This document shows positions 17,435 to 21,951 of a stretch of DNA of 27,515 nucleotides, one piece after another. The position numbers were made by a program, and so were the translations under genes. The notes under the pieces were generated by a model that was given only the letters and a program-made list of their open reading frames with translations, was not told the DNA's origin and did no database searches. Every line of letters begins with the position of its first letter. The stretch's first letter is position 1. This stretch comes from Promethearchaeota archaeon (lineage in GTDB: Archaea; Asgardarchaeota; Lokiarchaeia; Sigyniarchaeales; SOKP01), in contig JALGVJ010000044.1 in NCBI GenBank assembly GCA_029838195.1, positions 1-27,515 of the forward strand, given 5' to 3'.

Positions 17435-17519
17435 GCGGGAATTGCCGAGTTTGGCCAAAGGCGCTGGACTCAGAATCCAGTCCCGAAGGGGTTCGGGAGT
17501 TCGAATCTCCCTTCCCGCA
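17435..17519 (+). tRNA. tRNA-Leu (anticodon CAG), no intron, CCA not encoded
   Basis: Acceptor stem GCGGGAA/TTCCCGC with discriminator A. D arm GCC...GGC, anticodon stem CTGGA/TCCAG with loop CTCAGAA, long variable arm CCCGAAGGG, T arm GGGAG-TTCGAAT-CTCCC. Confidence 0.97.
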
Positions 17520-18984: not shown

Positions 18985-19584
18985 TTATCTTGTTTTAATA
19001 ACTACGGTTTTTGAAGCATTTTGCATGTATCTATATCTCTTTCTATCTACGGGCTCGTTAGAATTTGCCAAAAGACCAATTATCAAATCTAATAGTAAGA
19101 ACCAGGACGGTTTTAAAAGATTATTAATTACATGGCGGCCCACATTGGGAGGTTGAAATGTAGTTTCATCAACCGTCCTTATTTGAAGAGCTGCTTTACC
19201 GAGTGTTTGCCCGTGATTTATAGTTTCTAAACCCCAAAAATAAAGAAATCCAATTCCCCAATCCAGGAAAAAGCGAGGCCACCAATACCAACCACTATAA
19301 TTAAATGGAAATGAGATTAACCATCCAATTATAGAAATTATGATCATATCGATGATAAAAGCAACAAGGAGCTCCCAAAAATCGGCATATCTCACAGTTG
19401 AGGTGGTTTTTGGTATCACGAGTTCCGGAGATGGTTGGTAAGGAGTATAGGAAGAAGGAAAATCCACGTGCTGGACGGGAGGGGCTTCTTGAGTTTGATT
19501 TATTGTGAGCTGGCTCCCACAATAATTGCAGAATTTAGCATCGGCATCTATTCGATTACCACATTTTGGACAAAATTTAGCCAT
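18985..19584 (-). CDS. Zinc-ribbon plus RDD-family membrane protein
   Basis: N-terminal CPKCG...CNYCG, a Pro-rich linker, and RDD motifs YADFW..VAFIID and GQTLGK. An SD-like GAGGT lies upstream. Confidence 0.88.
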   Translation of the reverse strand: MAKFCPKCGNRIDADAKFCNYCGSQLTINQTQEAPPVQHVDFPSSYTPYQPSPELVIPKTTSTVRYADFWELLVAFIIDMIIISIIGWLISFPFNYSGWYWWPRFFLDWGIGFLYFWGLETINHGQTLGKAALQIRTVDETTFQPPNVGRHVINNLLKPSWFLLLDLIIGLLANSNEPVDRKRYRYMQNASKTVVIKTR

Positions 19585-19816
19585 TTATATTACCTCTTTA
19601 TTTTGGTTTTTTAGTTATCAATATTTATTAATGGTACTAAATCAGAATTAGTTAATAAAAGATCCATAGTCCTATTTTCACATTATTACCCTCCAATCTA
19701 AAAAAAAAAGAAAATAGAGGAGAATTTAGAAAAAATAAATCTATAAATATAACTCTTACTCTAATCTAGATTAGATAAAATGTAAAAGCATCGATAAAAG
19801 GCTATAAGTTTCTGAG

Positions 19817-19974
19817 ATGAAAAAACAAGAAAAAGACATGATTTATCCTTCAATAATCCATTGGTCTTATGGCATTGGAGGGTTTCTTACTAATTTTACG
19901 AACACTGCTTAAGCAACTTGACCAAGGAAAAAGTTGAAAAAAACCACAAGATCTTGTTAGAATTAGGACTATGA
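19817..19974 (+). pseudogene. Internally deleted MFS (GPH/MelB-like) transporter remnant
   Basis: 19817-19912 reads MKKQEKDMIYPSIIHWSYGIGGFLTNFTNTA*, like an MFS first helix. 19915-19974 in another frame reads NLTKEKVEKNHKILLELGL*, like a GPH-transporter C-terminus. Confidence 0.6.
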
Positions 19975-20125
19975 AAGAAAAGGTGCGTCATCACCCAGAT
20001 CAGGGTTCATGAAGCCCGATCTTCATAAAAAAGCCATTTTCCTTTCTACTTTTTTCACGATTTTTAAATATTTTATTTGGATGGTATTGAAATGAAAACT
20101 ATATTTAATTAATTTAATCAAGATC

Positions 20126-20142
20126 AATAAAAATTTAAATTA
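20126..20142 (+). promoter_or_regulatory. Putative BRE/TATA promoter for the leader-cimA transcript
   Basis: An A-rich AATAAAAA is followed by TTTAAATT (20134-20141), ending 23 nt before the ATG at 20165. This predicts a start site at or near that ATG (leaderless mRNA). Confidence 0.5.
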
Positions 20143-20164
20143 TGAAATGCATTAATCATTATAA

Positions 20165-20239
20165 ATGAATGAAAATATAATAATTCCTAGAATCATTAGC
20201 ATCATTATTTGTATTATAGGGATTATTAAAATTCATTAA
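20165..20239 (+). CDS. Isoleucine-rich leader peptide (MNENIIIPRIISIIICIIGIIKIH), putative attenuator uORF of cimA
   Basis: ATG at 20165 to TAA at 20237-20239. 13 of 24 codons are Ile (8 ATT, 3 ATA, 2 ATC), with no Leu, Val or Phe. It ends about 100 nt upstream of citramalate synthase. Confidence 0.8.
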   Translation: MNENIIIPRIISIIICIIGIIKIH

Positions 20240-20307
20240 GAGAATTTTAACCTCTTTTTCCCTTTCTCATGAGATTCTCATGCCTTTTTGGGTTAAAATT
20301 TTCTTTT
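20218..20307 (+). promoter_or_regulatory. Attenuator-like RNA with alternative stems
   Basis: 20226-20234 can pair with 20242-20250 (9 bp). Alternatively 20238-20252 can pair with 20291-20305 (15 bp, one G-U). There is an inner hairpin at 20268-20282 and pyrimidine/U tracts at 20253-20267, 20283-20289 and 20299-20307. Confidence 0.65.
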
Positions 20308-20340
20308 ACAAAATAAATAACATTATATCAAAATATAAGG

Positions 20341-21951
20341 TTGAAAAGCATGATGGATGAAAACGTGTTGATATATGATTCCACCCTTCGAGAAGGATGC
20401 CAAAAATCGGGTATAACGTTTTCAGTGGATGATAAATTAAGAATTTTGGAGAGATTAATTGAAGACCTTCAGATTCCCATGATCGAATTGGGGTGGCCAG
20501 GATCGAATCCTAAGGATCTTAGCCTTTATAAAAAGATTGACAACATGAACCTTGGAAAATCGAAGATTTTTGCTTTTGGAAGCACGAGAAGAAAAAATAT
20601 TGACGTAAAAGAAGATAAGTACATCCAAGCATTAGTTGCCTTAGGAATTAAACACGCAACGATTTTTGGAAAAAGTTGGGATTTACATGTCACGGACGCC
20701 TTGGAAACTACATTAGAAGAAAATCTCAACATGATTGAAGATACCATTCTATACTTAACTAAAAATGGCGTTGAGGTCATCTATGACGCAGAACATTTTT
20801 TTGATGGCTTCAAGCATAATAAAAAATATGCATTAGAAACCATTTCTTGCGCAATAAATGCTGGTGCCTCTTGGATTGTATTATGTGATACGAACGGTGG
20901 CTTACTCCCTCATGAGATACCCCCCATTTTCAAGGAAGTACGAGAACACCTGGGAAAAGTCCCATTAGGTATTCATGCTCATAATGATTCTGGCATGGCA
21001 AATGCAATTGCAATAGAAGCATTTTTAAATGGTGCTCGAATGATTCAAGGTACCATGAATGGTTTTGGAGAACGATGCGGAAATACAGACTTAACAACCA
21101 TTCTTCCTATCCTTAAATTGAAGATGGGAGTAAATTGCATATCAGAGGATTCCCTTAGGAATCTAACAAAGGTTTCTGGATTCATTTATGAACAAGCGAA
21201 TTTACCACACGTCGATGATCAACCTTTTGTGGGAAAGAATGCTTTTGCTCACAAGGGTGGGGTGCATGTTTCCGCCATATTAAAAAATGTGAAGACATAT
21301 GAACACATAGATCCTGAACTTGTTGGAAATAGACGCAACATGAAAATCTCCGAATTGTCAGGAAAAGCCTCCATTTTAAATTATGCGAAAAAATTTGGAA
21401 TTCCTTTAACGGAGGATAATCCGAAAATTCCTGCCATTCTTGAAGTAATTAAAGAAAAAGAACGCTTAGGTTATTCCTATGAAGGAGCAGAAGGCTCTCT
21501 AGAGATCATCATGCGAAGCATGGATATGAACATCCAAGATCCCGATTATTACCGTAAAAAATTTTTTGAACTGGAAGGTTTTAGAGTATTCACGGAAATG
21601 TACAAGGATAACTTGTTATCGGAGGCAACCATAAAAGTGAAAGTGAGTGGGGAAGAACACCATACAGTAGCGGAGGGAAATGGCCCAGTTCATGCATTAG
21701 ATAATGCCCTTAAAAAGGCTCTGCTTCATTTTTATCCCAGTTTAAATGAAATTAGTTTAACAGATTTTAAGGTACGAATTACGAATCAAGCGGGGACTGC
21801 TTCCGTTGTGAAGGTATTAGTTGAGACGGAAGATAAAGAGGCGAAATGGGGCACTGTAGGAACGCATGAGAATATAATTGTTGCTTCCTGGTATGGATTA
21901 GTAGATTCCTATATTTATAAGTTATTGAAAGATAAAATTCGATCAACGTAA
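20341..21951 (+). CDS. cimA: Citramalate synthase (bacterial-type CimA of the LeuA/DRE-TIM family); start probably the ATG at 20350 or 20353
   Basis: DSTLREGCQ, GWPGSNPKD, FGSTRR, GKSWDLHV, YDAEHFFDG, LCDTNGG, HAHND, GFGERCGN, AFAHKGGVH and SELSGK, plus a LeuA-type allosteric C-terminal domain (EGNGPVHALD). The GKSW/DAEHFFDG/AHKGG set marks the CimA clade rather than 2-isopropylmalate synthase. Confidence 0.88.
   Translation: MKSMMDENVLIYDSTLREGCQKSGITFSVDDKLRILERLIEDLQIPMIELGWPGSNPKDLSLYKKIDNMNLGKSKIFAFGSTRRKNIDVKEDKYIQALVALGIKHATIFGKSWDLHVTDALETTLEENLNMIEDTILYLTKNGVEVIYDAEHFFDGFKHNKKYALETISCAINAGASWIVLCDTNGGLLPHEIPPIFKEVREHLGKVPLGIHAHNDSGMANAIAIEAFLNGARMIQGTMNGFGERCGNTDLTTILPILKLKMGVNCISEDSLRNLTKVSGFIYEQANLPHVDDQPFVGKNAFAHKGGVHVSAILKNVKTYEHIDPELVGNRRNMKISELSGKASILNYAKKFGIPLTEDNPKIPAILEVIKEKERLGYSYEGAEGSLEIIMRSMDMNIQDPDYYRKKFFELEGFRVFTEMYKDNLLSEATIKVKVSGEEHHTVAEGNGPVHALDNALKKALLHFYPSLNEISLTDFKVRITNQAGTASVVKVLVETEDKEAKWGTVGTHENIIVASWYGLVDSYIYKLLKDKIRST

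Follow-up and report, generated by a model that had tools for sequence, protein, structure and literature searches.

An isoleucine-rich leader ORF upstream of citramalate synthase in Promethearchaeota is conserved and best read as an isoleucine-sensing leader peptide

The window analysed here, by which we mean the whole 27,515-nt stretch of DNA, makes up one complete contig and carries a gene for citramalate synthase (cimA), with which isoleucine synthesis begins in this archaeon, preceded on the same strand by a short upstream ORF (uORF) rich in Ile codons. The features that surround the two are as follows.

17435-17519, + strand: tRNA-Leu(CAG), the only tRNA in the window
18985-19584, - strand: RDD/zinc-ribbon gene
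20126-20141, + strand: promoter-like block made up of a BRE-like stretch rich in A and the TATA-like TTTAAATT at 20134-20141, with 23 nt left to the ATG of the uORF
20165-20239, + strand: leader uORF of 24 sense codons and a TAA stop, peptide MNENIIIPRIISIIICIIGIIKIH, the proposed sensor of charged tRNA-Ile
20335-20345, + strand: Shine-Dalgarno-like AAGGTTGA, preceding cimA
20350-21951, + strand: cimA, citramalate synthase

The product of the downstream gene scored 686.9 bits against the NCBIfam equivalog TIGR00977 (cut-off 450), all NCBIfam leuA models stayed under their cut-offs on 20350-21951, and Pfam assigns HMGL-like and LeuA_dimer domains to it, so that the identification as cimA made in the original prediction holds. 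According to the ORF map the neighbouring gene downstream is on the opposite strand and cimA is thus monocistronic here; it is the gene that we propose to be regulated by the leader. The original prediction had also pointed to an unannotated 24-codon ORF with 13 Ile codons, drawn from all three synonyms and free of Leu, Val, Phe and Tyr, about 100 nt upstream of cimA. Such an ORF is indeed found at 20165-20239 on the + strand, with 13 Ile among its 24 codons (eight ATT, three ATA and two ATC) and none of the four other residues; its place upstream of cimA was confirmed as well, the actual gap between its stop and the cimA ATG at 20350 being 110 nt. On its other side, the leader is separated from the RDD/zinc-ribbon gene by an unusually long divergent spacer (19585-20130, about 545 nt) that contains a GC-richer patch (about 19960-20030) and a 31-codon ORF of coding-like composition (19817-19912), and in which no Rfam match was found.

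To judge the Ile content we used the genome (4.5 Mb, 33% GC) as its own null, binomial probabilities being computed on its intergenic frequencies. Among all 37,236 ATG ORFs of 15-60 codons, only three contain at least 10 Ile making up at least 40% of their residues: one is the cimA uORF, and the remaining two lie within coding genes as out-of-frame or antisense readings of AAT (Asn-repeat) stretches, the cimA uORF being the top Ile-rich intergenic short ORF of the genome. Stop-free windows of 20 codons with at least 13 Ile occur at three loci in the six frames of the 4.5 Mb, and of the 8,274 short ORFs that precede genes the uORF (p = 2.6e-7) was second in single-residue enrichment. Measured against this background, chance is ruled out. 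Nevertheless, the leader region is of low complexity (local GC 19%, with recurring ATT-like triplets) and its antisense strand also harbours an Ile-rich frame (10 of 20 codons), and statistics from a single genome are for this reason insufficient to settle significance.

Comparison with relatives provided the missing support. Orthologues of cimA are present in 24 of 41 related genomes, and 10 further loci of the same family have an Ile-rich uORF that lies 104-133 nt ahead of cimA; an eleventh locus of the family (L007) keeps the leader without its stop, and five additional family genomes have a leader before cimA, giving 17 leaders from at least eight genera of this family of Promethearchaeota. 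The conservation that the original prediction demanded is thereby met. The peptides, 17-26 residues long and strongly hydrophobic, usually follow the pattern M-K-K-I-I-P...I-I-I-G-I-I at their ends. A covariance model of the leader (R1), run on this genome and the 41 relatives, matched this genome exactly once and 13 of the 41 relatives in one copy each, all of them cimA-bearing and with the match directly 5' of cimA, with the exception of one genome (G022) in which the leader and a 5'-truncated cimA fragment are on separate contigs. No R1 match was obtained in the 11 genomes of the family that lack cimA. The leader genomes are related to one another, and counts across them are not independent. 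In a second family (L022, L023 and L024, from G036, G040 and G035), cimA directly follows leuA and a longer Ile-rich uORF of 35-36 codons is found between the two, its start lying no more than about 12 nt from the stop of leuA, its end being IILNLIIC (IIIIISIILNLIIC) and followed by a GC-containing hairpin; this uORF would be an internal attenuator within an operon. No Ile leader was found before the cimA orthologues in f3, f4 and f11, families of higher GC content, nor at two of the five f2 cimA loci.

The same-genome screen that placed the cimA uORF near its top also returned there two of the cognate leaders that the original prediction had suggested looking for: a TrpB2 gene is preceded by a Trp-rich uORF (ending in SWRWQWQWR), and leuA by a uORF with a Leu run (ending in LLNSLLLLLLL). 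Together with a Phe-containing candidate they are located as follows.

G000, contig C38 (locus L025), 3059-2967, - strand: Trp-rich uORF MIFYFQYFKIWFKYMSTLLINSWRWQWQWR, ending 174 nt before trpB2 (2792-1380)
G000, contig C19 (locus L143), 1205-1324: Leu leader MPQRITIFKRSLVLRKDSSIKRLLGSLILLNSLLLLLLL, ending (TTA)7 TAA, with leuA from about 1411
G000, contig C70, about 18887-18770, - strand: Phe uORF MCSFIFLDNKFFKGFNLPRE, 20 codons with 5 Phe, upstream of pheS (from 18602), with GGTGA preceding

Both the Trp and the Leu leader are conserved. A GGCGUU-AGAG-AACGCC hairpin spans the stop of the Trp uORF at L025, whose downstream gene was identified as TrpB2 by NF009057 (643 bits), and uORFs ending in WxWxW precede trpB2 at about 22 of 30 related loci. 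Similarly, Leu-run uORFs precede leuA at 17 of 26 loci, with a strong hairpin 1-6 nt past each stop; at L143 this hairpin is GC-rich (CCCCCTCC...GGGGGGG), lies directly 3' of the leader and is followed by T5. At the Phe uORF, a perfect 13-bp hairpin (GCCAAGGGAATAA...TTATTCCCTTGGC) takes its 5' arm from the last codons and the stop, and TGCGGG and T6 come after it. The Leu and Trp leaders share no sequence with the Ile leader, each having its own cognate codon runs. Lower-ranked uORFs with runs of His, Thr, Tyr, Phe, Leu or Trp codons (p of about 1e-5 to 2e-4) were dropped as noise, as the genes downstream of them are non-cognate (TFIIB, DHH, AMP-binding enzyme, oxidoreductase, prenyl synthase, amidohydrolase, sulfotransferase, hydrolase, AsnC-type regulator and Ftr). 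That these candidates precede unrelated genes indicates that the cognate matches are not an artefact of screening many candidates. In the same genome a crude screen revealed no I/L/V-rich leader before ilvC or ilvD. For annotation, the amino acid of the leader can help to separate cimA-type from leuA-type paralogues.

When the 17 leaders were aligned on the ATG of the uORF, an A-run and a TATA-like octamer were seen at about -33 to -26 in all of them, the octamer ending 22-25 nt before the ATG in the leaders for which the spacing was counted, and no Shine-Dalgarno sequence was found before the uORF in this alignment. Such spacing, along with the lack of a Shine-Dalgarno sequence, is compatible with a uORF that would be read from a leaderless or near-leaderless mRNA; a leaderless transcript would fit the position of the promoter-like block, with no 5' end data at hand. 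For cimA itself, GGAGG, GGTGG or GAGGT-like motifs occur 6-12 nt 5' of the start in most aligned orthologues, which suggests that it is translated from a leadered mRNA. No conserved TATA-like block was detected between hairpin P2 (see below) and cimA in the orthologue alignment, and co-transcription of cimA from the uORF promoter is inferred, in the absence of RNA data, the listed sequencing runs that contain this DNA being DNA metagenomes only, with small shares of it.

The leader RNA is predicted to fold into two helices, P1 and P2, with a third pairing that competes with both.

20168-20237, + strand: helix P1, enclosing the whole uORF (MFE fold)
20168-20173 (AATGAA) with 20232-20237 (TTCATT), + strand: outer helix of P1 (MFE fold)
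20178-20193 (I-I-P codons) with 20213-20228 (G-I-I codons), + strand: inner helix of P1 (MFE fold)
20218-20263, + strand: candidate antiterminator 2:3, TTAAAATTC (20226-20234) with GAATTTTAA (20242-20250) and AGGGA (20218-20222) with TCCCT (20259-20263)
20238-20253 with 20290-20305, + strand: hairpin P2, 16 bp (fold), the proposed OFF (terminator) element, with the tail TTTTCTTTT
20268-20282, + strand: inner hairpin of P2 (fold)
20255-20259 and 20285-20289, + strand: T5 runs in the pyrimidine-rich loop of P2

In this genome the stop codon of the uORF falls partly within the 5' arm of P2, and the inner hairpin of P2 together with T5 was classed as terminator-like in the scan for such sites. P1 is conserved in the relatives as two pairings, that of UUAUGAA in the start-codon region with UUCAUAA after the stop and that of AAUAAUUCC with GGAAUUAUU, and P2 as a hairpin of 13-16 bp in which AGAAAUUUUAAAC pairs with GUUUAAAAUUUCU around a pyrimidine-rich loop with runs of U4-U7. 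The RNAalifold consensus recovers 9 bp of the inner P1 helix and 12 bp of P2. In the 17 sequences, 96.7% of P1 cells are paired, the pairs tolerating changes from U-A to U-G and C-G, and 91% of P2 cells, with G.U-compatible and compensatory changes; for P1 and P2 combined the value is 93.5%, compared to 33-65% when the partners were slid. Compensatory changes were seen at five pairs, and several A-to-G changes opposite U keep the pairing in the sense RNA only. It should be borne in mind that this alignment of 17 sequences had been fitted to the covariance model. The duplex between the start and post-stop regions is worth -5 to -9.6 kcal/mol in 14 of the 17 leaders, and P1 has been rebuilt in one lineage, g11, as CCAATAAT:ATTATTGG (CCAAUAAU:AUUAUUGG), with the Pro codon on the opposite side.

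The third pairing, 2:3, consists here of the 9-bp UUAAAAUUC:GAAUUUUAA and of AGGGA:UCCCU, is mutually exclusive with P1 and P2, and is the MFE structure of the nascent segment as long as the 3' arm of P2 is left out (L001, this genome). A textbook set of 1:2 (P1), 2:3 and 3:4 (P2 with its U-runs) is thus predicted in this genome, whereas the antiterminator is weak or shifts in register in the relatives. Its equivalent there amounts to only -1 to -5.4 kcal/mol (-1 to -1.5 in 8 of 17), the best partner of the post-stop segment is the start region or the last Ile codons, and the 5' strand of P2 pairs in varying register with its own U-rich loop (-4 to -8.5 kcal/mol), these alternative partners giving modest z-scores of -2.9 to +0.5 against shuffled loops. 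The U-run after P2 is not conserved either, the tails of relatives including TTTCGAGATTA and TTTATCTAAAT, and hairpin-plus-T sites are not enriched in the contig (10 found and 11.8 expected).

Taken together our comparisons across genomes show a conserved, Ile-specific uORF that is kept in frame, two conserved helices, a promoter-like block, strict linkage to cimA, and parallel leaders for Leu and Trp. In light of these results we hold it highly probable that the uORF serves as a leader peptide that senses isoleucine and exerts control in cis over cimA, a conclusion drawn from sequence data, the response to Ile being untested. The mechanism that we envisage would operate as follows. Transcription would start at or just before the uORF ATG, and a ribosome would load onto the leaderless 5' end with RNA polymerase still in the leader, its speed through the 9-13 Ile codons reporting the supply of charged tRNA-Ile. 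If the ribosome reached the stop, or if none loaded, P1 would close over the uORF and P2 would form directly downstream with its U-rich loop and tail, such that the transcript would be ended or silenced before cimA. If the ribosome stalled within the uORF, P1 would stay open, and the freed post-stop segment (in this genome also the ribosome itself) would interfere with the 5' strand of P2, allowing the polymerase to read into cimA. The sign of this response is inferred. Overall, an Ile-sensing leader with hairpin P2 ending or silencing the transcript before cimA is the best explanation and, in our judgement, a likely one.

The original prediction, that a ribosome stalling on Ile codons controls cimA expression, is upheld by the comparative evidence as far as the sensor is concerned; the output is not well supported. 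Once sensor and control in cis are granted, the balance tips only slightly towards premature termination, which is inferred without RNA data. Archaeal termination has been reported to need a U-tract and not a hairpin (PMC7515710), and it is therefore uncertain whether P2 can act as a terminator of the bacterial type. Hairpin-dependent premature termination is still ranked first, with the variant open that the pairing hides the U-rich loop from the termination machinery or exposes it. Two other ideas about how the ribosome might act on the output were not retained. That a ribosome positioned on the final Ile codon masks P2 directly fits the geometry of this genome and fails in most relatives, in which P2 begins 7-9 nt past the stop, so that the ribosome only abuts it; and a coupled ribosome that pushes the polymerase through the U-tract was set aside for having the wrong sign for a biosynthetic gene.

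The alternative that survives best keeps the sensor and replaces the output: without any intrinsic terminator of the hairpin type, the leader would act on translation initiation of cimA, on mRNA processing or stability, or on the access of aCPSF1/FttA to the U-rich loop of P2. We regard this as unlikely, though deserving of serious attention, because several features speak for it: not only is there no conserved U-run after P2, but termination by U-tracts and aCPSF1 cleavage does not require a hairpin (PMC7515710), the loop of P2 is conserved as pyrimidine-rich with its U4-U7 runs and can pair with the purine-rich segment before P2, and mycobacterial leaderless poly-Cys sORFs act on translation (10.1101/834739). 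However, the complementarity between leader segments and the cimA ribosome-binding region was no better than that of shuffled sequences in the 10 species analysed (z of -1.8 to +1.6), P2 ends 40-50 nt before the Shine-Dalgarno sequence of cimA, and for aCPSF1 there are no data in this lineage.

A different question is whether the uORF is read as codons at all. The leader could instead be a structured regulatory RNA (a riboswitch, a protein-binding site or an sRNA) with the open frame as an untranslated by-product of AU-rich helices, as the conservation of P1 and P2 at the level of nucleotides and the Ile-rich antisense frame would allow; moreover, the I-I-P and G-I-I codons are themselves the arms of P1, and part of the Ile content is to that extent structural. 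The unconserved spacer between the arms argues strongly in the other direction. The arms are fixed in frame in the family leaders (AUA-AUU-CCN and GGN-AUU-AUU), the spacer has lengths of 22, 25, 28, 31, 34 and 37 nt, all equal to 1 modulo 3 and hence differing by multiples of three, and the reading frame is in this sense conserved through indels. Within the spacer 91 of 163 in-frame codons (56%) encode Ile and none is a stop, while the two other frames have 9 of 163 and 4 of 146 Ile codons together with 13 and 18 stops. The ATG and the stop are retained in 16 of the 17 leaders, the Leu and Trp counterparts carry runs of their own cognate codons despite being unrelated in sequence, and no known RNA family accounts for the element: in the window no Rfam leader or attenuator model, those of the Thr, Trp, Leu, His and Phe leaders included, matched at gathering thresholds, and an E-value search of 19550-20400 returned as its sole match a chance-level pntA (E = 0.32). 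We consequently give the structured-RNA explanation very little weight; translation of the uORF itself is inferred, there being no RNA data. Even less credible is a hydrophobic micropeptide with a function of its own, such as a membrane peptide, co-expressed with cimA. The conserved and strongly hydrophobic nature of the 17-26 residues would suit such a function, but the hydrophobic positions are nearly all Ile (in the 11 orthologous peptides 117 Ile compared to 5 Leu, 7 Val and 3 Phe, i.e. 15 others), excluding the generic hydrophobic helix with Leu/Val substitutions that had been named as a refutation; in addition, length and sequence vary outside the RNA arms, the stop-less leader at L007 reads on for 57 codons, and paralogous enzymes have leaders that match their products, Leu for leuA and Ile for cimA. 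Finally, a chance ORF in AT-rich, low-complexity intergenic DNA, compatible with the base composition and ATT-like triplets of the region, is refuted by conservation, as this genome-wide outlier has been kept in 17 genomes with cimA proteins of 68-79% identity and an otherwise unalignable spacer.

The stop-less leader mentioned above (L007, in G004) is a natural variant in which TAA has become CAA, such that the 57-codon uORF runs through P2 nearly to cimA with P1 and P2 intact; it could serve to separate the role of the position of the stop from the roles of the helices.

Leader-peptide attenuation is the textbook case of the ribosome as a metabolite sensor, as exemplified by the enterobacterial leaders ilvL (ilvGMEDA), ivbL (ilvBN), leuL, thrL, trpL, hisL and pheL. 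A quantitative model of attenuation in enterobacteria is available (PMC1183508). The cimA leader resembles these systems in that a biosynthetic gene is preceded by a short ORF which is rich in codons for the product of the pathway and lies within competing RNA helices (1:2, 2:3 and 3:4 with U-runs, as predicted in this window), and in that its logic requires coupled transcription and translation. It differs from them in its host, an archaeon, whose polymerase resembles RNA polymerase II, whose promoter is of the TATA/BRE type and whose termination relies on U-tracts and aCPSF1; with a polymerase of this eukaryotic type, a hairpin terminator in the bacterial style should not be expected to function as it does in bacteria. 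Unlike the enterobacterial leaders, moreover, the cimA uORF is apparently leaderless, its regulatory codons continue right up to the stop, the whole uORF with its start codon lies inside a single helix, the antiterminator is weak or variable in the relatives, the hairpin is almost purely A-U without a conserved U-tail, and no Rfam leader family matches it.

Akin to the leaderless poly-cysteine sORF attenuators of the mycobacterial 'Cys ribulon' (Canestrari et al., bioRxiv 10.1101/834739), the leader is, apparently, a leaderless short ORF as first cistron with a run of one cognate codon, and one sensing principle recurs at several loci, here for Ile, Leu, Trp and perhaps Phe. In the Cys ribulon, however, the ribosome-binding site downstream is sequestered in a duplex, which the stalled ribosome opens; the cimA leader lacks such complementarity, and its conserved hairpin is 40-50 nt upstream of the Shine-Dalgarno sequence. 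The three-hairpin attenuator of Corynebacterium ilvBNC (PMC10272879, PMC11857589) likewise combines a conserved uORF in a branched-chain amino-acid leader with hairpins that do not behave as the simple textbook scheme would have it, and differs from the cimA leader in being bacterial, in having a mixed Ile/Val/Leu peptide, and in controlling ilvB. In a search of the full-text literature we found no description of leader-peptide attenuation in archaea, only in bacteria, which agrees with the earlier remark that no well-characterised attenuator of this kind was known in Asgard archaea. The cimA leader is real and conserved, and is best read as an Ile-sensing leader peptide, a device undescribed in Archaea, its regulation and output being unproven.

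Beyond cimA, we think it rather probable that Promethearchaeota (Asgard archaea) possess a set of ribosome-sensed leaders, Ile/cimA, Leu/leuA, Trp/trpB2 and probably Phe/pheS (conservation untested), which would constitute the first ribosome-mediated attenuation in Archaea and would combine leaderless uORFs enclosed by helices with termination of the U-tract/aCPSF1 type in place of a bacterial intrinsic terminator. If the mechanism is correct, it would imply that the prokaryotes most closely related to eukaryotes couple transcription and translation functionally. The leader would offer a concrete cis-element for studying termination and coupling in archaea, and would add to the few instances of gene regulation known from organisms that are extremely difficult to culture.

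The distribution of the leader also bears on the physiology of its hosts. In the set of 41 genomes, the genera of the family either have both cimA and leuA or lack both, neither gene being found in g2, g8, g9, g11 and g12, and the Ile leader vanishes along with cimA. This joint loss suggests branched-chain amino-acid auxotrophy in those lineages, and the concomitant absence of leader, cimA and leuA may be used to mark lineages that are likely auxotrophic. Outside the archaea, short ORFs with Ile runs (containing ISNIIIIINAAG and ITIIISGLLIIGG, respectively) were noticed upstream of two bacterial cimA loci, L128 and L090, from Thermodesulfobacteriota and Syntrophales MAGs, whose cimA is about 50% identical to the archaeal one; these ORFs may be bacterial counterparts of the leader.
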